Positions 1 to 18,513 of a stretch of 64,000 nucleotides of DNA are shown in pieces (position 1 is the first letter of the stretch; each line of letters starts with the position of its first letter). The position numbers and the translations under genes were made by a program. Location of the stretch: positions 18,165 to 82,164 of IMG/VR virus record IMGVR_UViG_2867134129_000001; one strand, 5' to 3'. This DNA comes from a virus (taxonomy: Duplodnaviria; Caudoviricetes). The notes under the pieces are model-generated. The model searched no databases. It was not told the DNA's origin and saw nothing but the letters and a program-made list of their open reading frames with translations.

Positions 1-1
1 G

Positions 2-124
2 GCGACCCTCGACGACACCTGGCCCATCCTGCAAATGATCACAGCATGGGACAAGGTCACCAGCCGAAAACGCCACCGCGCCGACTACCTCGCAATGGCC
101 GACCGCATCCTCGCCCAGCTATAA
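2..124 (+). CDS. C-terminal fragment of a hypothetical protein (truncated by window edge)
   Basis: Open frame ATLDDTWPILQ...RILAQL* with GC3-rich codons, followed by a GC hairpin at about 136-158. Confidence 0.5.
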   Translation, partial: ATLDDTWPILQMITAWDKVTSRKRHRADYLAMADRILAQL

Positions 125-167
125 CAACACCAGCGGCCCCCGCCGGAAGGGGGGGGCGCAGCCAATC

Positions 168-629
168 TCAACGTTTCGTGGGCCAGATTTCATGCCGAGC
201 ATCCCACCACACCACATGAAAGACGTTCCCGACCAAAAAACCCCAGAGCCGGCCAGCGCTCCCGATCCGCAACTTCCAGATCTGCGTCATGTCGGATAAA
301 CCCAACGCGTCAAGCCGGGCCAGCGCGACCCTATTCGGCAAAGTATGAACATCGTGACGCTTCCCAGGCCATTCGCCCTGATGGAACAGCTCGTGCATCG
401 TCTGGCTCTCGAACTTCGCCATATCCTGAAGCAACGCCATCAAACGCTCATGATCCAGCGACACGAGCCCCCACGGGCCATCCAAGTCCAAATGGCTGAA
501 CCGCCAGCACACCCGCTCCTCAGACGTCCTGCTGCTCGGCAGGAGCAAGGCCGGATCCCCAGTGCGCTTCTCGTCCGAGATAGACCCGGGCGGGACGCTG
601 ACCTTCTTCCCCTTCCCCCCTTTGCCCAT
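168..629 (-). CDS. Putative toxin partner (PanT-like, possibly RelE-like RNase)
   Basis: Start overlaps the stop of the Panacea gene; C-terminal 'WKLRIGSAGRLWGFLVGNVFHVVWWD..H' resembles RelE-like RNase toxins. Confidence 0.6.
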   Translation of the reverse strand: MGKGGKGKKVSVPPGSISDEKRTGDPALLLPSSRTSEERVCWRFSHLDLDGPWGLVSLDHERLMALLQDMAKFESQTMHELFHQGEWPGKRHDVHTLPNRVALARLDALGLSDMTQIWKLRIGSAGRLWGFLVGNVFHVVWWDARHEIWPTKR

Positions 630-1087
630 CAGTCTTCGCGGCCCGCCAACGCACCGAAGAAGTCGGCGATCTCCTCATCCCGCAGCTCTTCGTTGCTGCG
701 CTGGAGGTCGTCCTCCAGGCCCGCCCGCCGCCGGGCATCCAGCCAAGGGCCGGGCCGATGCGTCATCGCGGACAGCTCATGGGCAGAAAACGCCTTGAAA
801 CTCTCCAGCACGGCGTCGATCGACTCACGCTCGCCCACATCCAGCTTCGACGGGTCGCCGTGAATATCGCCGCTCTCAAGTCGGAACTGGCCGCGGTGCT
901 CGGCGTACAACTCGTACACCACCGGCCCGTTCGCCCACGCCTCGAAACGCTCCGGGAACAGCTGCCGGTCCTCCCAGGCCAGGTGGTACCCGTAGGCGAA
1001 ATAGCAGAGCTTCTGCAACTTCATCGCGGACATCGGACTGTCCTTGCGCAGTATGTACGCGGCCACGTCCTGAACGCTCGCTGTCAT
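629..1087 (-). CDS. Panacea/SocA (DUF4065, GepA-like) antitoxin
   Basis: Motifs 'MKLQKLCYFAYG', 'FEAWANGPV', 'LSAMTH..GPW'. Confidence 0.9.
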   Translation of the reverse strand: MTASVQDVAAYILRKDSPMSAMKLQKLCYFAYGYHLAWEDRQLFPERFEAWANGPVVYELYAEHRGQFRLESGDIHGDPSKLDVGERESIDAVLESFKAFSAHELSAMTHRPGPWLDARRRAGLEDDLQRSNEELRDEEIADFFGALAGRED

Positions 1088-1249
1088 GGTGTCCCCTCTG
1101 GTGCCTGTTCCTCACCGTAGATGAGTCCTCTCCGGGTGCGACTCGGCGGGTCTACGGGCAGGACGGCACATCCCCCAGACAGCCCACCGTAGCGACTGGA
1201 GCTGGCACCGGTAAGAGGCAGGGTGAAGGTCTGGACAACCCATGACGTG

Positions 1250-1265
1250 TCGATCGCACGTTCGA
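1250..1265. promoter_or_regulatory. Candidate LexA (SOS) box upstream of the TA operon
   Basis: TCGATC-GCAC-GTTCGA, one mismatch to actinobacterial TCGAAC-N4-GTTCGA. Confidence 0.45.
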
Positions 1266-1411
1266 ATAACTGGTGGGAGGAGTCCACCCAGAGGCCCAAT
1301 CGTCCAGCCCCACGGAACCGCGTGACGAACGGGCCCGAACACGCCGCGACCCCCATCAATCGGTGGAGGTCACGGCGCACGTGCGCCTTCGGGGACCACG
1401 AGGGCACAGGG

Positions 1412-1831
1412 TCACGACGCCTCACCCTCCTGCGGCGGGTAGGCGATGGCGAGCCCCGGCACCTCCTGCGCAATCCGGGCAACAACCGCCCGGTGCCAGG
1501 AAGCCGGGAACGGAACCTCGGGGTGCGCTGCGTGGTACTCGGCATCCGTCCGGTACGTGAACACCCCAGGCCCTGGGAGGTCAAGAAGCTTGCTGACGGC
1601 GCCAGCCACGAACTCACCGGTACGGGCCTCCAGGCTCTCCATCTCCAAACGCACCCCGTCAGGGACGGCGTACTTGCCCTGCTCCCAGTGCCGCACCGTG
1701 CGGGGGGACACCCCGAGGTGGGCGGCGAGCCAGTCCCCGGTCAGGCCGAGCCAGTCCCGGACCACACGGAACTCGGCGTCCGTCATCCGCTCATCGTCGG
1801 ACATCCCGGGAGGGTCGGTGTGCTCAGTCAT
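1412..1831 (-). CDS. HTH regulator, DUF1870/YdiL/Aca2-like
   Basis: 'EFRVVRDWLGLTGDWLAAHLGVSPRTVRHWEQGKYAVPDGV' HTH plus C-terminal 'PASWHRAVVAR'. Confidence 0.75.
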   Translation of the reverse strand: MTEHTDPPGMSDDERMTDAEFRVVRDWLGLTGDWLAAHLGVSPRTVRHWEQGKYAVPDGVRLEMESLEARTGEFVAGAVSKLLDLPGPGVFTYRTDAEYHAAHPEVPFPASWHRAVVARIAQEVPGLAIAYPPQEGEAS

Positions 1832-1886
1832 GCTGGGGCCTCCAGGCCGTAAGCCCCGGCGGTATCCGCCGGGGCTGGGGTGGCCG

Positions 1887-2222
1887 TCAGTTGTCGACGT
1901 CGTGCTTCTGGATGATCGTCCACAGGTCGACGTCCTGGATCGCTTCGCGGATGTCGAAGTCGCCGATCTCGTCGGTGTAGTCGGGGTCGGTGTGGTGCAG
2001 GCCGATGAACTCGTTGCCCGCGATGGAGATGCCGGCGGGGAGGGCGTCTTCGATGGCGTCGCGGTAGTCGGAGGCGATGAGGTCGAGGGCGCCGCTGCTC
2101 TCCATGCGCTCCTGCCAGTCGCTGGGGCCGCCGTTGATGGCGTCCACGATGCTGGCCTCGACGGACAGGTTGCCGCTGTCGCCGTGGTTGTTCCAGGTGC
2201 CGTAGCTGGTGGTGACGTTCAT
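1887..2222 (-). CDS. Small, highly acidic hypothetical protein (anti-defence candidate)
   Basis: 111 aa, 23 D/E vs 4 K/R; GAAGGA RBS; upstream of the Aca2-like HTH gene. Confidence 0.75.
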   Translation of the reverse strand: MNVTTSYGTWNNHGDSGNLSVEASIVDAINGGPSDWQERMESSGALDLIASDYRDAIEDALPAGISIAGNEFIGLHHTDPDYTDEIGDFDIREAIQDVDLWTIIQKHDVDN

Positions 2223-2275
2223 GGCCGGGTCCTTCCGGTGGAGTCTGGGGCTGTTCCCCTGACCTCATGACGACA

Positions 2276-2304
2276 ACATTAGCTTCCTGTTTTAGGAAGC
2301 GCAA
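2276..2304 (-). promoter_or_regulatory. Sigma70-type promoter with an inverted-repeat operator in the spacer
   Basis: TTGCGC-17 bp-TAATGT on minus; IR GCTTCCT-N5-AGGAAGC at 2282-2300. Confidence 0.75.
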
Positions 2305-2347
2305 GGGGTGTCGCGCAGAAGAGTGAGAACCCATCAGAAACCCCAGC

Positions 2348-3493
2348 TCAGAAACGCATCGCCGGATGGCACCGCTGGCACAGGGTGGTCGTCGGCAACC
2401 CGTCATGGCCGGTCGCATCCCGCCGGCGGGTCACCTCGCCGCAGTCCGGGTCCCCGCAGTGCGGTACCGTCTCCCACCCTTGAGGCCGCGACCCGTTCCG
2501 GCCTTCCTCCTCCAGGCGCCCCCACGAGTCCTGGTACGGCCTGTGCGGGCCCGAACGCCCGGCAAGCTGCATCCACCCATCCACGACCGCATCCGTGCCC
2601 TCCAGGGGCCGTCTCGCAGCCTCACGGAACGCCACCGGGTCCGGCAGCTCATCCGCAGCCAGCCGGTGCACGTACACTGCCGCAGCAGAGTTCACCGCGG
2701 CACCACCGAGGTCGAGGTACGTCTTCAAGTCCTGCTCGACCCAACCGGCGTCCAGGGCGGCAGCGACAAGGCCGACCAACCGTCCGCGCTGCTTCGACCC
2801 CGGCGGGCGACCACGGAAGTCCAGCGCGGACACGAAGGGCTCGGCCTGCGGGTGCAGTTCCGGCGTACCAGTGGCGGTACCTCGGTCTTCGTCTTGATGA
2901 AGGAAATCGCCACCGCCTCCTCCCTGCCCAGCCGGCTCATCACCTGCAGACGGCAGCGGGCCGGAGGAGGAGGGAGAGTCTTGAGGAGAAGCAAGGAGAA
3001 GAACAGGAGAAGGGGGCCCAACGGTGGTTGGCCCTTCACCCACCACGGTTGGGCCTTCGCCCACTGTGGTTGGGCCTTCCGCAACCACGGTTGGGCCTTC
3101 AGGCGTCAAAGGCCCAACCGTGGTTGGCCCTTCCGGCTCACAAGGTCCAACGCTGGTTGGGGCTTCGAAATCCGGCACCCGGAACTGCATCGCCACACCC
3201 GGCACCGCATACAACGGACGGCCATCCCGGCCCGTACCGATCGGCAACCGGAACTCCCAGCCCGCCACCGCAAGCCGACGCAGCATCTCCCGGACGCTCA
3301 GCTCATCCTTCGCACCCGTCCACCGCACCAAGTCCGCCAAGCGCACCTTGCTGCGCCTGCCCCGGGCCGCGTCGAACCGCCACTCGTCGTCATACCGGGC
3401 GTCATCCGCGATCTCCAACGCCACCGCCCGCTGCAAACCCTTGATCTCCGGCCCCAACGCCTCACGCAACTCACGGCGCAACTCGCTACTCAT
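2348..3493 (-). CDS. Putative replication initiator (phage O-like organisation)
   Basis: Start MSSELRR after GGAGG; N-terminal helical domain, internal EGPTxVG repeats, C-terminal Cys pairs; last gene of the Bro-N operon. Confidence 0.6.
   Translation of the reverse strand: MSSELRRELREALGPEIKGLQRAVALEIADDARYDDEWRFDAARGRRSKVRLADLVRWTGAKDELSVREMLRRLAVAGWEFRLPIGTGRDGRPLYAVPGVAMQFRVPDFEAPTSVGPCEPEGPTTVGPLTPEGPTVVAEGPTTVGEGPTVVGEGPTTVGPPSPVLLLASPQDSPSSSGPLPSAGDEPAGQGGGGGDFLHQDEDRGTATGTPELHPQAEPFVSALDFRGRPPGSKQRGRLVGLVAAALDAGWVEQDLKTYLDLGGAAVNSAAAVYVHRLAADELPDPVAFREAARRPLEGTDAVVDGWMQLAGRSGPHRPYQDSWGRLEEEGRNGSRPQGWETVPHCGDPDCGEVTRRRDATGHDGLPTTTLCQRCHPAMRF
3018..3166. repeat. Six iteron-like repeats ending GGTTGG(G/C)CCTTC inside the rep gene
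   Basis: Units at 3018, 3039, 3060, 3081 (21-bp period), then 3114, 3147 (33-bp period). Confidence 0.85.
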
Positions 3494-3578
3494 CACAACC
3501 TCCACCGCACCGACCAACGCCGAGCAGCACAAACACAGCACTCCTGAGGGAACGCGGGACCCGCCCGCCGATCTGGAA

Positions 3579-3608
3579 ACGGCCGGGCAGCTGGTGCTGC
3601 CCGGCCGT
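3579..3608. terminator. 13-bp perfect stem-loop between the bro and rep genes
   Basis: ACGGCCGGGCAGC-TGGT-GCTGCCCGGCCGT. Confidence 0.5.
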
Positions 3609-3623
3609 AAGGAACCGCAGGGG

Positions 3624-4391
3624 TCAGGCGCTAAGGGCGACCTGGCCGCCCGACTCGAACATGCCGATCTCGTCGGCGATCTCCGCGTACACCTGCTCCA
3701 GCAGCGGGCGGTCGTCCTCGACGTATGCGACGACCTTGTCGATCCGCGAACCGGCAGGCCCCGGGATCTTCTCCGGGCGCTTCCCATGCACCTTCAGGTA
3801 CCGGTTTGAAACCCGGACCCCGAACCCCGACTGGAACTTCGCCACGGTCGCCGGCTTGTGCCCCTTCTCCGCGAGGAACGTCGACGCGTACAGAGGCGTC
3901 TCCGCGGAGTCGAGCTCGGGCCGCTCGCCCATCGCCCGCGCCATGATGACCTTGCCGGTCGCCGCCGCGTAGGACTCCGGCAGGACGTGCCGCAGGATCG
4001 CGAGCACCTCGGCCTGCTCCCGGTACGGAAGGGGCCCAGCCGCCGTAGTGACCTCCCGCACCGGCTCCGCCTCGAACCGCCCGGTCTCCCGGATCTCGCG
4101 CAGGATTGCCTTGACGCGCTTCTTGATCTCTTTCGCGCCAGGGAGGGTGCTGCGGAAGATCAGCTCCCACATGCCGTCCTCGTAGATGACGTTCAAGCGC
4201 TGCGGACCGCCGGGGGTCAGCACGATTTGCTGACCCTTTTCGTCATCACCCAGGAGGCGCGTTGCGTCGCTCGCCTGCCCGTACCCCATGGCCTTCGCGT
4301 AGTCCGATGCCACGGCGTAGGGGGTGCCGTGCTCGGTGACACCGAAACGGATGTCCGACCCCGAGACGTTGAACAACTGCACTGCGCTCAT
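3624..4391 (-). CDS. Bro-N domain antirepressor-like protein
   Basis: 'TPGGPQRLNVIYEDGMWELIFRSTLPGAKEIKKRV..ILREIRETGRF'. Confidence 0.9.
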   Translation of the reverse strand: MSAVQLFNVSGSDIRFGVTEHGTPYAVASDYAKAMGYGQASDATRLLGDDEKGQQIVLTPGGPQRLNVIYEDGMWELIFRSTLPGAKEIKKRVKAILREIRETGRFEAEPVREVTTAAGPLPYREQAEVLAILRHVLPESYAAATGKVIMARAMGERPELDSAETPLYASTFLAEKGHKPATVAKFQSGFGVRVSNRYLKVHGKRPEKIPGPAGSRIDKVVAYVEDDRPLLEQVYAEIADEIGMFESGGQVALSA

Positions 4392-4765
4392 CAGATGGCG
4401 TCCATCTGCCGGCGAAGCACGCGCAGGGTGTCGACGAACGCCTGCATCTGTGCGATGAGGATGTCGGCGCCATTCTTGTCGACCTCGGCGTCGGTCTCGC
4501 CGCTCAGGTACATGACGAGCGTGTCATCGTCCGGCGTGCGGTCGATCTTGAGGAGCTGAGCCTTGATGAGAGCGTCAGCCACATCGCCGTCGAGCGGATC
4601 GGGGTTTGCCACGCTGTGCTCTGCCGAGAGGTGGACGGTCATGCGCATGGTGGCGCATGCCGCCGCCTGGTGGCTTTCGCGGCACCAGGCCGGGCAGAGG
4701 GTGGGGTGCGCGGCGTGGGTGTCACCCTCAGGCGCATCTACGGATCCGGGCAGTAGAGTAGTCAC
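4391..4765 (-). CDS. Hypothetical protein (DUF6907-like)
   Basis: 'CPAWC..H' N-terminus and helical C-terminus; coupled to bro. Confidence 0.65.
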   Translation of the reverse strand: MTTLLPGSVDAPEGDTHAAHPTLCPAWCRESHQAAACATMRMTVHLSAEHSVANPDPLDGDVADALIKAQLLKIDRTPDDDTLVMYLSGETDAEVDKNGADILIAQMQAFVDTLRVLRRQMDAI

Positions 4766-4866
4766 GTGGACTTCCTCTCTTCGCAGGGAAGGGTCTCCGA
4801 TCAGCGAGGTGCAACTCGCTGTGCGAACCGGCCGAGGCGTTTGAGCGCCTCGGCCGTTCTCGTCTC

Positions 4867-4895
4867 AAGCTAAGCCCATTCTGAGCCGAAGGCAA
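4867..4895 (-). promoter_or_regulatory. Promoter of the antirepressor/rep operon, divergent from the repressor
   Basis: TTGCCT-17 bp-TAGCTT on minus; adjacent palindrome GCCTA-GT-TAGGC at 4896-4907. Confidence 0.55.
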
Positions 4896-4961
4896 GCCTA
4901 GTTAGGCATTCGGTGTGCGTCGGGGGTGGCGCCCACGGCTCTACCTGTGCATGATGTGCCT

Positions 4962-5363
4962 ATGAGTGAGGACTACGAGGCGCTAGGGAGGGCCGTAAGG
5001 GAGGCCCGGATCCGCCAAGGCATGACGCAGACCCAGTTGGCCGAGGTGGCTGGAGTGTCGCGAGCCACGCTTCAAAATTTGGAGCGCGGCGGAAGGCTGC
5101 GGAGCCTCAACCTAGTGAAGATCGAGTCGGTGCTGGGGTGGGCCCCAGGATCCGTCCAAGCTCTCCTCGAAGGGGGCGCCCCCAGCCCGATAGAGGAGAT
5201 GCCGGAAGCGGTCGGGGCCTCCTCGGTCACCCTCTCCGAAGAGGAGCTTGCGCAGGCAGTCACCAGCGCCATGGTCGCCACGGTCGACACTGTAACCGCC
5301 GCAGAAATCCGCGAGGTCGCGCGGAGGATGGTTGAGGATCTTAAGCAACGCGGAATCCTCTGA
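4962..5363 (+). CDS. XRE-family HTH repressor, probably leaderless
   Basis: 'GMTQTQLAEVAGVSRATLQNLERG'; CATGAT -10-like hexamer 6 nt before ATG. Confidence 0.85.
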   Translation: MSEDYEALGRAVREARIRQGMTQTQLAEVAGVSRATLQNLERGGRLRSLNLVKIESVLGWAPGSVQALLEGGAPSPIEEMPEAVGASSVTLSEEELAQAVTSAMVATVDTVTAAEIREVARRMVEDLKQRGIL

Positions 5364-5386
5364 GTCCTCCGCATCCTGGGCGCAAG

Positions 5387-5411
5387 AAGGCCCCGCCAGT
5401 GGCGGGGCCTT
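5387..5411. terminator. Bidirectional intrinsic terminator
   Basis: AAGGCCCCGCCA-G-TGGCGGGGCCTT between convergent genes. Confidence 0.8.
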
Positions 5412-5425
5412 TCGATTGTCCTGGT

Positions 5426-5833
5426 CTAGCGGCGGAGCGCCTCATCCAGGTACTCCTGCACGGGCCCAAACAGCCCCCACGGCACGTACTTCGCGATCTC
5501 CTCGTGCCTGATCCATTCCACTGCGGCGATCTCTTCGGCGTCCCCGACGATGGCGTCTCCGGAGATCAGCTCGCACGCCACATACGTCATTGGCACCCCT
5601 GTCTGCGGGTGGACCCGGTCACCGAGGACTCGGACGGCCTTGACCTCCAGGCCGACCTCCTCCGCGGTCTCCCGCACCGCGGCCTGCTCCGGGGACTCGC
5701 CGGCCTCGATGCCGCCGCCGGGGAACGCCCACAGCAGCTTCCCCTCCCGCTGCTGCCGCCGGATCATCAGCACCTTCCCTCTGTCGACGATGATCGCCGT
5801 GGAGACGGGGGGCTGGACACTCTGCTCGGTCAC
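5426..5833 (-). CDS. NUDIX hydrolase
   Basis: Nudix box 'GGGIEAGESPEQAAVRETAEEVG'. Confidence 0.92.
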   Translation of the reverse strand: MTEQSVQPPVSTAIIVDRGKVLMIRRQQREGKLLWAFPGGGIEAGESPEQAAVRETAEEVGLEVKAVRVLGDRVHPQTGVPMTYVACELISGDAIVGDAEEIAAVEWIRHEEIAKYVPWGLFGPVQEYLDEALRR

Positions 5834-6468
5834 GCTGCCTCCAAGGCACTCAAGATCGGCGGGTAGATGTTCTCGGCAGGGATGAAACGGGTCAGGGCGG
5901 CGAGGGGCACCCAAGCGACGTCCATGTTCTCGACCGCGTCCAGGTTGCTGGCCTCGCCGGCGAGATAGTCGCAGAGGACGTAGCTGGCCAGCACCCCGGT
6001 TTTCGGGTGAACCCGGGTGCCGAGCTCCTCGCGGACCGCAACGTGGACCCCGGTCTCCGCGTGGGTCTCCTGCACCGCCACCGACGCCACGGCGGCGCCC
6101 GGCTTGCACATCCCGGCCGGGAACTGCCAACTGAGCGCGTCATCGCCGCGGCGGCACACGAGGAGCACCTCGGCCCCGCGCAGCACCACGGCGATAGCGA
6201 CCCGGAGCACCTGCGCCTCAGCCTGGGCGGGCTCCTCGGGCGGGCGGGACAGAAGGGTGAAGCGGCGTCTCACGTGCTCGGTAGCCCTCTCGTAGGTGGT
6301 GTCGAGGGCCTGCTGCATCTCGGTGCGCGGCACGATCTCCGGGTTTTTGTGCCAGCCGGCGACCGTGCGAACCGCAACCCCGAGCTTCGCGGCGAAGCTC
6401 TCGTTCGTCATGCGGAGTGCGGCCTGCAACGCGCAGGCGGTGCGGCCGGTCCACGTGGTGACGTTCAC
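5830..6468 (-). CDS. HTH-NUDIX fusion protein
   Basis: N-terminal HTH 'MTNESFAAKLGVAVRTVAGW'; degenerate Nudix box 'GMCKPGAAVASVAVQETHAETG'. Confidence 0.85.
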   Translation of the reverse strand: MNVTTWTGRTACALQAALRMTNESFAAKLGVAVRTVAGWHKNPEIVPRTEMQQALDTTYERATEHVRRRFTLLSRPPEEPAQAEAQVLRVAIAVVLRGAEVLLVCRRGDDALSWQFPAGMCKPGAAVASVAVQETHAETGVHVAVREELGTRVHPKTGVLASYVLCDYLAGEASNLDAVENMDVAWVPLAALTRFIPAENIYPPILSALEAA

Positions 6469-6621
6469 TATCCGGCTCCCCGGGTCGTGGCGTTGCGGGT
6501 TCTGCATCACTGCTGCACTGCTACTGCACTGCGGGCCGATCCGGTGCACTGCCACCGCACTGGAAGCTCATCGCCCGGTAAGCCGGCCGCCGGTTGACTT
6601 GAAGGCATGGAGATCAGCCGT

Positions 6622-6861
6622 TCACCTGGAAGCCCGCGAGATTTGCTCCGCTCTGGAGCCGGTCACGCCAAGCAGGTCGCCGACCTGTTGCCAGGAGCGT
6701 CCTTCGTGGAGGTTCCGGGCGATCTCGGCTTTGACGTCCTTGAGATTGGCGTCGAGTTGCGCTTCGAGGTTCTTGACCGCCTGGTACCGCTCGACGTCGT
6801 CGCTGATCTCTTTGATGGCCGCGATCAGCGACGTCGCGCGGGCTTCCAGGGTGTCGGTCAT
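6622..6861 (-). CDS. Small HTH protein, probable repressor of the transfer operon
   Basis: 'GRSWQQVGDLLGVTGSRAEQI'; divergent from the tra operon; TACTCT hexamer 6 nt before ATG. Confidence 0.75.
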   Translation of the reverse strand: MTDTLEARATSLIAAIKEISDDVERYQAVKNLEAQLDANLKDVKAEIARNLHEGRSWQQVGDLLGVTGSRAEQISRASR

Positions 6862-6892
6862 GGAATGAGAGTAGGGGCCGATCCGGGCCACT

Positions 6893-6961
6893 TCAAGCAG
6901 TTGCTTGACGCGGGCCGGGTGCAGGTCTACTGTCTAACTCAGCACTCCAAGCACCGCTTGA
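6893..6961 (+). promoter_or_regulatory. Promoter of the spd/tra operon with two palindromic operators
   Basis: TTGACG(6905)-17 bp-TACTGT(6928); TCAAGCA-GT-TGCTTGA at 6893-6908 and CAAGC-ACC-GCTTG at 6948-6960. Confidence 0.8.
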
Positions 6962-7086
6962 AGCGCCGTTCACTCCTACCGGGCATGCCCGCGAACGGTG
7001 CGACAACGAAAACGGGCCGGATGCCAGCGACTCCTACATCGCGCAGCATCCGACCCTCACCGCCAAGGTCTATGAAGGAGACCCCG

Positions 7087-7356
7087 ATGGCTGTGCAGAA
7101 CTCTACCGTCGAGCGCCCCGCGCTCAGCGACCTATCCCCGGCCGACATCGCCGCCCACGAGGCTGGCTCGTATGTCCGCCGCGAGACAGTCTCGTACACC
7201 GACCTCGCCCGTGCTCGGCACGACCAGGACTGCGCCCGGTGCCGCACTCTCACCGAGGAGAGCGACGCCCGCGCTGCGGCTTACGGCGAGTCCATTCGTC
7301 GCCGCGACCGCCAGCAGCTCGGCCTCCAGCGTGTGATCGCCGGGAGCATCCGGTGA
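7087..7356 (+). CDS. Hypothetical protein
   Basis: AAGGAG RBS; first gene after the promoter. Confidence 0.6.
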   Translation: MAVQNSTVERPALSDLSPADIAAHEAGSYVRRETVSYTDLARARHDQDCARCRTLTEESDARAAAYGESIRRRDRQQLGLQRVIAGSIR

Positions 7357-7719
7357 TCGCCCCGATGTCTGCGGCGGACCGCAAGGCTCACGTGAAGGCG
7401 TCGCACCGCCGCCTGGCCCGGGTTTCCCAGGAGTCCCCGACCCCGCCCTCGGATCCGGCTGCTCGCCGCCGGTTCATCGCGCAGCGGCAGTGGTGACTGG
7501 CTGTGTTCGGGTCTGCTGACTTGTGTTCCGCTGACCGTGACACTCGTCTCCGCTTGGACCGCATCAATCGGGCTGCGGTGGCTGCCGAGGCTGCGAAGGC
7601 GAAGCGGGAAGCCGCCGCGAAGGCGCGTACCGCCCACTGACTTCCGCGCCCCTGTCGGCGAACTCCCCCGGTCGGCCGGGGTGCGGCTCTCCACCCTCAC
7701 CCACCCTGGAAGGACAGTC

Positions 7720-7959
7720 ATGCCCAGTCTCGACATTCCTGACGTGCACGTGCTGCTGGCCGCCGAGGGGACTCTGCTCCTCGATCGCCCGCAGAGTGAA
7801 GCCGACGTGTCGGCCGCAGTCGCCCAGGCGCTGGAGGCGGTGACCCAGGCGTACCGGGTTGCTTACGCCCACGCCGGTGGTGACGACGAGGACGACACGG
7901 TTGACGGCCTCGACATGGCGTTCCACCTGCTCCGCAGCATCGCCAACGACCTGAAGTAA
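7720..7959 (+). CDS. Hypothetical protein
   Basis: GAAGGA RBS, GC3-biased codons. Confidence 0.6.
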   Translation: MPSLDIPDVHVLLAAEGTLLLDRPQSEADVSAAVAQALEAVTQAYRVAYAHAGGDDEDDTVDGLDMAFHLLRSIANDLK

Positions 7960-8002
7960 CCCCCACCCCAACACCCCACTTCACCACTCGAAGGGCACCT
8001 CC

Positions 8003-18108: not shown

Positions 18109-18513
18109 GTGATCGCCAGCAACCGCACCCGCCGCGCCGCACTTCGCACCATCGCCCGCATCCACCAGGCCGCCCGCCGGGTCAGCAAGGCCCTCGCCTA
18201 CCGCACCCGCTCCGGCCTCATCGCCGCCGCCGTCGACCAGGGCACCCTCATCCGCACCGGCGACCTCCTCGACCGGCTCGGCGCCGACCTGAAGGACGGG
18301 CAGCGCTCCTGGTACGGCCGGCACACCGCCAAGGCATACCGGGCCGCCCACCTTGGTGCCGACGCCGTCAAGGTGTGGGCGCAGCACCGCACCACCGGCA
18401 AGTGGATCCACGTCCACGTCTACGCCCCGACCGACCCCGCCCTGTACGCCGCGCTCACCGCCTACAAGGCCACCCGGTACCTCTCCCAGGCCGACTTCGC
18501 GGAGGTCGCCTAG
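18109..18513 (+). CDS. Basic hypothetical protein
   Basis: GAGGGGG RBS, strong GC3 bias. Confidence 0.65.
   Translation: MIASNRTRRAALRTIARIHQAARRVSKALAYRTRSGLIAAAVDQGTLIRTGDLLDRLGADLKDGQRSWYGRHTAKAYRAAHLGADAVKVWAQHRTTGKWIHVHVYAPTDPALYAALTAYKATRYLSQADFAEVA

Follow-up and report, generated by a model that had tools for sequence, protein, structure and literature searches.

A putative self-repressing operon of the acr-aca2 kind, with a variable acidic cargo gene, in a Streptomyces prophage

Introduction

The closest described counterpart of the locus reported here is the acrIF8-aca2 operon of Pectobacterium phage ZF40, where Aca2 binds the promoter repeat IR1 with nanomolar affinity and represses the operon, as passages of PMC6765145 describe. 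According to the relevant passages of a 2026 paper (PMC13551039), Aca2 also binds two hairpins in the 5′UTR, blocking the ribosome site. The same passages credit Birkholz et al. (Nature, 2024) with naming the ‘actino-motif’ of aca2 operons, an RNA motif described there as lying upstream of these operons, mainly in Actinobacteria, together with a promoter-spanning DNA motif. Aca2-like proteins exist outside acr contexts too, as part of PMC8434428 indicates.

Here we analyse a window of 64,000 nucleotides (positions 18,165–82,164 of IMG/VR record IMGVR_UViG_2867134129_000001), which is a Streptomyces prophage carrying portal, terminase, tape measure and tail fibre genes. A preliminary description of its left part had named a promoter with an inverted repeat, a gene for a small acidic protein, a hairpin and a gene for an HTH protein. 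All of these features are present, and all lie on the minus strand. We rate the odds as slightly better than even that they form a two-gene, self-repressing operon like the acr-aca2 operons known from Proteobacteria, an estimate that takes in the mechanism and the inhibitory role of the cargo considered below. Direct support exists for the homology and fold of the regulator, for the covariation and conservation of the DNA and RNA elements, and for the acidity and variability of the cargo. The features are, from the promoter onwards:

2299–2304, minus strand: putative −35 hexamer TTGCGC, read from the sequence
2282–2300, minus strand: predicted operator, palindrome GCTTCCTAAAACAGGAAGC, with the family core CTTCCTA-N3-TAGGAAG; it fills the −35/−10 spacer and is the putative binding site of the regulator
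2276–2281, minus strand: putative −10 hexamer TAATGT; nearly all aligned loci have TAnnnT
2242–2264, minus strand: 5′UTR hairpin 1, GGTCAGGGGAACAGCCCCAGACT, from aligned loci and folding
2225–2238, minus strand: 5′UTR hairpin 2, CCGG-AAGGAC-CCGG, whose loop contains the Shine-Dalgarno sequence; the ATG lies 2 nt further on
1887–2222, minus strand: cargo gene for a 111-aa acidic protein (family A), for which no known family or fold was found
1852–1876, minus strand: intercistronic GC hairpin with a perfect 11-bp stem (arms 1852–1862 and 1866–1876) and a 3-nt loop, 20 nt before the start of the aca2-like gene
1412–1831, minus strand: aca2-like gene for a 139-aa HTH regulator of the Aca2/YdiL family, assigned by Pfam, PDB sequences and Foldseek

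Results

The regulator is an Aca2-family protein

Against the Pfam family Aca2_YdiL (PF08965), the regulator scores 22.3 bits, 1.5 below the cut-off of 23.8, over positions 1–93 of the 118 in the profile. A phmmer search of the PDB matched residues 15–106 to the Aca2 chains 8w35, 7vjo and 7b5j with E-values of 2e-7 to 2e-6, and a profile of 11 regulator sequences put four Aca2 entries first (E 3.4e-10 to 1.2e-8), ahead of the next family at 4e-4. The AF2 model (pLDDT 91.5) holds the N-terminal HTH and the C-terminal dimerisation domain of Aca2/YdiL in one fold. Foldseek aligned it with ZF40 Aca2 (7vjp) over 118 columns (118/119 residues) at 30% identity, with a TM-score of 0.81 (by target) and an rmsd of 2.1 Å, and the best 10 matches, all those with E ≤ 0.001, were without exception Aca2, SO3848 or YdiL. 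The HTH protein, which the preliminary description had called Aca2-like, is a true member of the Aca2 family.

The order of the two genes and the palindrome in the promoter also agree with a type II toxin-antitoxin system of MqsRA or HigBA layout, in which a toxin gene comes first, an HTH antitoxin second, and the palindrome serves autoregulation; weak matches of the regulator, confined to the HTH, to the MqsA-family model TIGR03830 (22.2 bits, cut-off 61.8) and to HigA2 point the same way. We nevertheless regard such a system as very improbable. The full-length fold matches are to Aca2/YdiL and not to antitoxins, the cargo is extremely acidic (net charge −19) with no toxin family found for it in Pfam, NCBIfam or PADLOC, and unrelated proteins replace it in sister loci. 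Moreover, the strong hairpin before the second gene would be expected to reduce antitoxin relative to toxin, the opposite of what a toxin-antitoxin pair needs.

A conserved operator and two 5′UTR hairpins

The −35 and −10 hexamers are separated by 17 nt, and transcription is predicted to start near 2267–2270. TTGnnn is kept at the −35 position in 17 of 18 aligned loci, the exception (L041) having CTATCG. A generic scan for E. coli-type sigma-70 promoters returned no promoter-like site between positions 1000 and 5000 of the window; it missed TTGCGC because only three of its six positions agree with TTGACA.

The inverted repeat of the preliminary description, GCTTCCT-N5-AGGAAGC, has its arms at 2282–2288 and 2294–2300. 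Within 4 kb there are 34 inverted pairs of 7 nt or longer, so the repeat by itself is not above chance, and its pattern with up to two mismatches is expected 1.7 times per window and was observed twice. What makes it significant is its conservation across loci. The same palindrome lies at the same place, at most 900 nt from the regulator gene, in 20 of 37 related loci, and 1.0–1.26 kb upstream in seven of 11 further loci examined. It occurs a single time in the 7-Mb genome. In an Amycolatopsis locus (L015), the operator reads CACCCTA-N3-TAGGGTG, with both arms changed. Through this recurrence and covariation, the repeat holds up as a conserved putative operator inside the promoter spacer.

The alignment of the promoter and 5′UTR (18 loci) has a mean column identity of 76% despite differing first genes. 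Hairpin 1 (helix 2 of the alignment) is 92% paired and hairpin 2 (helix 3) is 100% paired, each with two pairs changed on both sides. Over the operator and the two hairpins together, 94.7% of the cells are paired and six pairs have changed on both sides; shuffled alignments gave 1.1 such changes, and none of 500 reached six. When the pairing partners were shifted along the alignment, pairing fell to 57% or less.

Actinobacterial phages and prophages repeatedly carry one cassette made up of the operator, the two-hairpin 5′UTR with its ribosome site, the intercistronic hairpin and the aca2-like gene. A scan of IMG/VR that started from the motif found 20 sites, 18 of them with the whole cassette, and an Aca2-like gene lay further on at all 16 sites with enough downstream DNA, including one (L060) that counts as Aca2-like on its first 19 residues only. 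Neither the operator nor the UTR motif was found at the eight family-A loci that lack an Aca2-like gene. An Rfam search of positions 1000–5000 gave no match at the cassette. The same search returned a sub-threshold match to BjrC68 at 3079–3158, within a repeat-rich ORF.

The intercistronic hairpin

The hairpin between the two genes has a folding energy of −34.7 kcal/mol (z −3.4) and no U-tract. It is kept as a structure in all 28 distinct loci, with variable sequence, and the regulators of these loci are 58–88% identical. The preliminary description had noted a perfect 11-bp hairpin and pointed out that Aca2 binds mRNA stem-loops. The perfect stem is there, but its sequence differs between loci while the regulator is conserved, which makes it an unlikely target for Aca2 to bind by sequence; an attenuator or stabiliser is the more likely role. 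A scan for terminators in positions 1000–5000 reported one unrelated terminator-like site, at 3538–3555.

An acidic cargo protein in a variable slot

The composition given earlier for the 111-aa cargo protein, 23 acidic (D+E) and four basic (K+R) residues, proved correct and gives a net charge of −19. Acidity is common in the window, with a pI below 5 in eight of 14 other proteins sampled. The model has a compact alpha/beta fold (pLDDT 90). No match was found in Pfam, and nothing above noise came from Foldseek against the PDB (best E 1.2), the wide VIA-align search (best Z 4.6) or a cargo profile against PDB sequences (best E 0.37); by sequence, family B likewise had no PDB match above noise. 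PADLOC and NCBIfam placed no cargo protein above cut-off, and the ESM Atlas gave no usable match for the family-A protein. Its best PHROGs match (E 0.0087) is a family of unknown function. In BFVD, the cargo matched orf41 of Thermobifida phage P318 (E 8e-9), an unnamed 100-aa protein (E 0.099, TM 0.65–0.72) and, weakly, Propionibacterium phage proteins.

Surveying the genes upstream of regulator homologues, we found differing small acidic proteins in different phages: the slot between the UTR and the regulator is occupied by at least four sequence-unrelated families, all very acidic. The computed pI of 31 cargo proteins (29 distinct) is 4.05–4.46 throughout, where 4.05 recurs so often that it seems to be the lower limit of the calculation. 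A variable cargo gene before a conserved aca gene is a trait of acr-aca operons, and the architecture, as the preliminary description had proposed, is that of acr-aca2 operons. In Streptomyces phage Gilgamesh, for example, gp87 is 68% identical to the regulator, and its upstream neighbour gp86 stands in a locus with the same operator, UTR and hairpin as the window. Family A compares with family B at E 0.16 by hhalign, with P1312_045 at E 0.28 and with Gilgamesh gp86 at E 0.0034 (probability 9.5%). Families A and C may be distantly related, in which case there would be fewer independent cargo families. Single-linkage BLAST clustering had joined all cargo into one cluster; we rejected this grouping because the link runs through composite proteins and profile comparison splits A from B. 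The three-gene versions of the operon begin with a basic 168-aa HTH_17 protein (pI 9.84), so the promoter does not drive acidic small proteins exclusively.

Cargo modules are also found fused. Family-A fusion proteins have 160–385 aa and join it to other small acidic modules, as with A+B in P0035 and A+B plus further modules in P0072; apart from occasional HTHs, the fused modules match no named Pfam domain. Acidic domains are also joined to DNA-binding domains: family A to an HTH in P0051 and P0099 and to a weak HTH_1 match in L009, and another acidic domain directly to Aca2_YdiL in L061 (27.3 bits, above cut-off). Such repeated joining would suit an acidic protein that is the partner of the regulator, as an anti-repressor, a sensor subunit or a DNA-mimic competitor, the pair forming a switch. 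Loci without Aca2 in which family A is followed by another regulator, such as L011 with a ROS_MUCR protein (E 9.6e-8), add to this. However, regulators that are 58–88% identical and share one operator stand next to sequence-unrelated cargo, which fits poorly with a specific protein interface, and family A is joined to acidic modules without DNA binding as well. Acr-Aca fusions without such a role are known, AcrIF24 (PMC9638941) being an example. We consider a partner of the regulator improbable.

Prophage and host context

Pfam searches of 10 long ORFs in the 12 kb left of the window gave weak HTH matches only and no integrase to mark the prophage end, and megablast of positions 1–8000 against phage records gave no match. 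The cassette adjoins early-region genes (Bro-N/Ant and DUF6907) and a Panacea-type antitoxin pair.

A type I-E CRISPR-Cas locus is present in the host: two arrays flank open frames for cas3, cse1, cse2, cas7, cas5, cas6e and cas1. Part of the sequence around one array reads N, and none of the 18 readable spacers matches the prophage window. One spacer matches the host chromosome perfectly (32/32), in a GNAT-like ORF outside the prophage with the flanks GCC and TTC. The PAM of type I-E systems is AAG. We had taken up this self-targeting spacer as an argument for a resident anti-CRISPR and dropped it: with flanks unlike the type I-E PAM and a target outside the prophage, the match calls for no inhibitor. 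A spacer against the element, as would be expected for an anti-CRISPR operon, was thus not found among those readable in the host despite its type I-E locus.

The same regulation could serve another phage effector that is expressed early or in lysogeny and needs tight dosing, such as an inhibitor of a nucleoid protein, of the transcription machinery or of replication, or a superinfection-exclusion factor. The association with Aca2 is the sole tie of the cargo to defence, and passages of PMC8434428 place Aca2-like regulators in various contexts. The early-region neighbours and antitoxin pair, and a prophage matched by no readable spacer, fit such an effector too. Against it, several unrelated acidic families replace one another at a single slot and fuse into multi-module proteins. 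Swapping and fusing of this sort is a pattern known for counter-defence genes. In addition, the named genes under Aca1 and Aca2 motifs are largely acr genes in the account given by passages of PMC13551039. We regard an effector outside defence as unlikely, with a chance that is still appreciable. By association, it is reasonable to treat the cargo, which the preliminary description had proposed as a new anti-CRISPR or anti-restriction protein, as a candidate new inhibitor of bacterial defence; that it is a DNA mimic is a guess from its composition.

Discussion

For the acr-aca2-like operon that we favour, the ZF40 Aca2 precedent and the conservation of the elements suggest the following course throughout. 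On entry or induction of the phage genome, a housekeeping-type promoter would drive a brief surge of transcription. The Aca2-family dimer would then bind CTTCCTA-N3-TAGGAAG in the −35/−10 spacer and shut the promoter. At a high mRNA level, the dimer would probably also sit on the two 5′UTR hairpins, one of which holds the ribosome site, and block translation of the first gene. The intercistronic GC hairpin most likely cuts read-through into aca2 or shields the 3′ end of the upstream message, so that the cargo would be in excess over the repressor. The cargo itself most likely acts stoichiometrically to inhibit a host defence or another nucleic-acid-binding host factor.

A wider, tentative reading, to which we give well under an even chance, is that the cargo modules are a combinatorial toolkit of small acidic actinophage inhibitors, each directed against a different Streptomyces defence and all dosed by one Aca2-type DNA/RNA switch. 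The modules in question comprise families A and B, the Gilgamesh gp86 type, a short ‘DFDIDAIV...HD’ type, a 56-aa type and a type of about 200 aa. Their targets might be type I-E Cascade/Cas3, Pgl/BREX and restriction enzymes, and the fusions of 160–385 aa might be polyvalent versions. A search of a library of open-access papers found no characterised anti-CRISPR or anti-defence protein of a Streptomyces phage; if the toolkit exists, Streptomyces would gain its first known anti-defence proteins, along with several new inhibitor folds. Streptomyces are the main industrial antibiotic producers, and their defences (type I-E CRISPR-Cas, Pgl/BREX and restriction) limit phage work and genetic manipulation. 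The operator and UTR motif offer a sequence handle to a slot with at least four unrelated acidic families, and with it a short candidate list, and the cassette is predicted to work as a small, self-regulated unit for gene expression in GC-rich hosts. Should the candidates fail, the cassette would still carry the DNA-plus-RNA control scheme of Aca2 into a distant phylum, where an intercistronic hairpin is added to it.

Among known inhibitors, Ocr, ArdA, AcrIF2 and AcrIIA4 are small acidic DNA mimics. The cargo resembles them in small size and strong acidic excess and differs in that it matches no solved chain by fold or sequence. The fusion of family A to acidic modules resembles the polyvalent proteins of phages and conjugative elements (PMC5512222); a difference is that the fused modules here match, beyond the occasional HTH, no named Pfam domain. 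The cassette agrees with the published description of actino-motif operons, and on that description the two 5′UTR hairpins are probably the actino-motif, so that the regulatory part is probably already known; the citing passages of PMC13551039 are silent on the acidic cargo families described here.

Compared with the acrIF8-aca2 operon of ZF40 (PDB 7b5j, 7vjo-q and 8w35), the candidate cargo has no detected relation to any named Acr, as judged from Pfam, PHROGs, NCBIfam and PDB sequences and folds rather than a dedicated Acr library. The two regulators are about 30% identical, and the core of the ZF40 operator is TTCG...CGAA in contrast to CTTCC...GGAAG in the Streptomyces prophage, whose operon also has a GC-rich actinobacterial host and an extra conserved intercistronic hairpin. 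What the two share is a regulator homologous over the HTH and the dimerisation domain, whose gene follows a small cargo gene, a palindromic operator in a promoter with 17-nt spacing, and structured 5′UTR elements that end at the ribosome site.

Locus and promoter layout

The operon is encoded on the minus strand in a Streptomyces chromosome (window G000:C1:5672507-5736506); the nearest named protein comes from S. cyaneofuscatus at 97% identity. Genes for a portal, a large terminase, an HNH endonuclease, a tape measure of 2052 aa and a tail fibre mark the window as a prophage. All features of the preliminary description (promoter, inverted repeat filling the promoter spacer, acidic ORF, hairpin and HTH ORF) were located on this strand, and a recount of the 111-aa protein agrees on 23 acidic and 4 basic residues.

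Features of the operon, in the direction of transcription
2299-2304 (-), -35 element TTGCGC, read from the sequence
2282-2300 (-), operator palindrome GCTTCCTAAAACAGGAAGC, filling the 17-nt spacer, from a repeat scan
2276-2281 (-), -10 element TAATGT, read from the sequence
Between the -10 element and the 111-aa ORF (-), 5'UTR of ~45 nt
2222-1887 (-), 111-aa cargo ORF (family A)
1876-1852 (-), perfect 11-bp intercistronic hairpin, from a repeat scan
1831-1412 (-), 139-aa HTH regulator ORF, preceded by GGAGG

Neither the inverted repeat nor the promoter rises above chance when judged singly; they gain their weight from the comparison with other loci. A 14-nt perfect palindrome, GGCGCACGTGCGCC, at 1374-1387, 25 nt past the regulator stop codon, could be a terminator stem or a further binding site.

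Directly downstream of the operon is a SocA/Panacea-domain protein (629-1087, minus strand; Pfam E 3.7e-16), which overlaps by one base a basic 153-aa ORF without a family (168-629, minus strand; pI 9.25); the pair looks like a prophage-borne Panacea-type antitoxin with a candidate toxin. On the other side, the ORF at 2348-3787 (minus strand), a 479-aa protein with no family, has long direct and inverted repeats clustered at 3015-3128 (arms up to 18-20 nt), which encode GPTTVGEGPTVV-like peptide repeats, and a sub-threshold Rfam BjrC68 match (27 vs 39 bits) falls in and slightly past the cluster at 3079-3158. The same strand encodes, upstream of the operon, a protein of Bro-N/anti-repressor type and one with DUF6907 (3624-4765), faced by a divergent HTH_3 repressor-like gene at 4926-5363 on the plus strand, which together probably form the prophage immunity and early region.

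The regulator is an Aca2 relative

The proposal that the HTH protein is Aca2-like is borne out by PDB-sequence and Foldseek comparisons, and by sequence and predicted structure the 139-aa regulator is a member of the Aca2 family. It scores 1.5 bits below the cut-off of Pfam Aca2_YdiL in an alignment spanning almost the entire profile. Its top PDB-sequence matches are three Aca2 entries (~2e-7), and a profile of 11 homologues retrieves four Aca2 entries at 3.4e-10 to 1.2e-8, far ahead of other families. The AlphaFold model (pLDDT 91.5) superimposes on ZF40 Aca2 with a TM-score of 0.81 (2.1 A, 118 of 119 residues), and all ten Foldseek matches below E 0.001 are Aca2, SO3848 or YdiL; we infer the latter two to be the structural homologues left unnamed in the available text of the Aca2 structure paper (PMC8434428). 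A tblastn search of phage genomes (60 records) found relatives in Streptomyces phage Gilgamesh (68%), Thermobifida phage P1312, many mycobacteriophages and Pectobacterium phages.

Operator and 5'UTR are conserved across loci

Related loci were gathered via the cargo (16 genome loci plus phage P318), via the regulator (28 IMG/VR loci plus four phage records) and via the operator pattern only (20 IMG/VR sites). In 20 of 37 loci, CTTCC-N6/7-GGAAG precedes the regulator by 450-690 nt. In seven of 11 further loci examined the palindrome lies 1.0-1.26 kb upstream, with a third gene inserted. It was not found in L033, L036, L043 or L007, a contig that ends 30 nt before the cargo, nor in the more distant mycobacteriophage-type loci, where the scan reached 900 nt only.

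When 18 promoter/UTR regions were aligned, their mean identity was 76%, exceeding the conservation of the proteins downstream. The common order is TTGnnn, operator, TAnnnT and two hairpins, the first being GGTCAGGGGAACAGCCCCAGAC and the second CCGG-AAGGAA-CCGG, in which the Shine-Dalgarno sequence forms the loop; ATG comes next. The three helices formed by the operator and the two UTR hairpins are paired in 94.7% of cells, with six pairs changed on both sides compared with 1.1 in shuffles (0 of 500 shuffles); control alignments with shifted partners destroyed the pairing. Both arms are altered in Amycolatopsis L015 (CACCCTA-N3-TAGGGTG and GGGA...TCCC), and its regulator recognition helix reads VNPRTVRAW in place of VSPRTVRHW, a single case. 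Folding of the window UTR yields the predicted hairpins (-20.6 kcal/mol, z -2.0) and a predicted outer helix in which CAUG near the predicted 5' end pairs with the start codon.

The operator and both UTR hairpins occur once in the 7-Mb genome. In IMG/VR, 18 of the 20 sites with the operator pattern carry the full cassette, and an Aca2-like gene follows at all 16 with sufficient downstream sequence. Operator and UTR motif are both absent from the eight family-A loci that have no Aca2-like gene (8/8).

In the three-gene operons (L004, L023, L024, L025/L072, L029, L030 and L034), the first gene encodes a basic protein of 168 aa that weakly matches HTH_17; the acidic cargo and then aca2 follow. 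Their operator is mostly CTTCC-N6-GGAAG and not N7, with N7 in L025/L072. Additional UTR-hairpin copies precede the cargo in the three-gene relatives L024, L030 and L033.

A variable acidic cargo occupies the slot

A survey of genes upstream of regulator homologs, as the preliminary description had proposed, found several distinct acidic protein types at the position that follows the UTR and precedes the regulator gene: family A; family B (HFTAWL...AGWxTVGDW); the type of Gilgamesh gp86; a short 'DFDIDAIV...HD' module, by itself or linked to B; singletons of 171, 71 and 56 aa; and an acidic domain of ~200 aa in direct fusion with Aca2_YdiL. Profile comparison indicates that family A is unrelated to family B (E 0.16) and likewise to P1312_045, another cargo type (E 0.28), with a borderline match to gp86 (E 0.0034, probability 9.5%). 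The pI is 4.05-4.46 in every one of the 31 cargo proteins (29 of them distinct, as L047 repeats L002 and L029 repeats L004), and 4.05 appears to be the lowest value that the calculation gives. Acidity is shared by several further prophage proteins, and the first gene product of the three-gene operons is basic.

Family A is well conserved: the alignment of 21 sequences has 19 invariant columns, among them W10, W36, Y53, F72 and H107. A profile search retrieved 375 cluster representatives at E<=0.001 among 1.84 billion. The AlphaFold model of the cargo is a confidently predicted, compact alpha/beta fold (pLDDT 90) that matched none of the solved structures (Foldseek best E 1.2, VIA-align best Z 4.6); its profile had no match among PDB sequences. 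At least 150 aa in length are 77 of the best 150 representatives, in which the domain is usually N-terminal. Among 12 representatives inspected for fusions, family A is joined to family B (P0035), to B and two further modules in an arrangement resembling phage P318 orf41 (P0072), and to HTH domains (P0051, P0099), or is preceded by an HTH-like leader (P0045, P0053). Many fusions of acidic proteins to DNA-binding domains suggest that the acidic protein might be a partner or anti-repressor of the regulator, which is hard to reconcile with the pairing of unrelated cargo with near-identical regulators.

On the IMG/VR contig L061 (4229-5215), one 329-aa protein stands behind the same promoter, operator and UTR; it is a natural cargo-regulator fusion in which an acidic N-terminal part of ~200 aa is joined to Aca2_YdiL (27.3 bits, residues 209-302). 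Where no Aca2-like gene is present, family A is lengthened at the C-terminus by 65-75 aa that match nothing in Pfam (Kitasatospora L012 and L013), with a similar tail in Kitasatospora L014; it has a weak HTH_1 match in Actinocrinis L009, and in Nocardiopsis L011 the next gene encodes a ROS/MucR zinc-finger protein (E 9.6e-8).

The intercistronic hairpin is structurally conserved

A hairpin of 8-18 pairs is present in each of the 28 distinct spacers between cargo and regulator and stops 15-38 nt short of the regulator start, with a median z of -3.3 against mononucleotide shuffles; only in Thermobifida phage P1312 does a T-run follow. The hairpin had been proposed as a specific Aca2 site, which the comparison makes unlikely: stem sequences vary between loci with nearly identical regulators, operators and UTR hairpins, and we therefore read it as generic RNA structure. 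It may act as an attenuator or terminator lacking a U-tract, or as a 3'-end stabilizer of the cargo message, setting the cargo-to-repressor ratio. In the available text of PMC13551039, RNA binding by Aca2 concerns two 5'UTR hairpins, and repeats of the UTR hairpin in intergenic positions are mentioned; the window has no such intergenic copy. A toxin-antitoxin pair fails as an explanation of the operon, as the composition of the upstream protein is unsuitable, no toxin family matched in Pfam, NCBIfam or PADLOC, the cargo is swapped between loci and the hairpin would lower the 'antitoxin'.

Proposed function

We observed regulator homology and fold, a conserved, covarying operator and UTR hairpins, a conserved intercistronic structure and a variable, acidic, modular cargo. 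By analogy with the ZF40 Aca2 operon, as far as the available text of PMC6765145 and PMC13551039 describes it, a regulator dimer would bind the operator in the -35/-10 spacer, thereby blocking RNA polymerase, and the regulator would also bind the two UTR hairpins and block the ribosome site, giving a brief burst of cargo and then shut-off. Judged by association, the cargo is probably a stoichiometric inhibitor of host defence or of another nucleic-acid-binding factor. We give an anti-defence role of any kind about an even chance; a dosed effector with some other role would look the same in sequence.

The host has a type I-E CRISPR-Cas locus (G000:C1:601222-612086) with the cas operon between two arrays (29-nt repeat) and all effector genes in open frames. 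None of the 18 readable host spacers targets the prophage. One of them matches the chromosome perfectly (32/32) at C1:3953906-3953937, inside a GNAT-like ORF, and is self-targeting with its target outside any element examined. The flanks there are GCC and TTC, which lack the type I-E PAM (AAG). Because no spacer hits the prophage and the self-match lies elsewhere without that PAM, an anti-CRISPR role is possible but not indicated, and we regard it as unlikely.

Comparison with known systems

Among the open-access papers searched on Aca2 or anti-CRISPRs in Streptomyces and Actinobacteria, none characterizes such proteins, and the available portions of the published Aca2 work make no mention of a conserved intercistronic hairpin or a catalogue of acidic cargo modules. 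The uncharacterised cargo family is a good, if unproven, anti-defence candidate. The regulatory kind itself is already known: the accessible text of PMC13551039 (2026) describes an RNA 'actino-motif' upstream of aca2 operons, named in 2024, and the UTR hairpins found here are likely this published motif.
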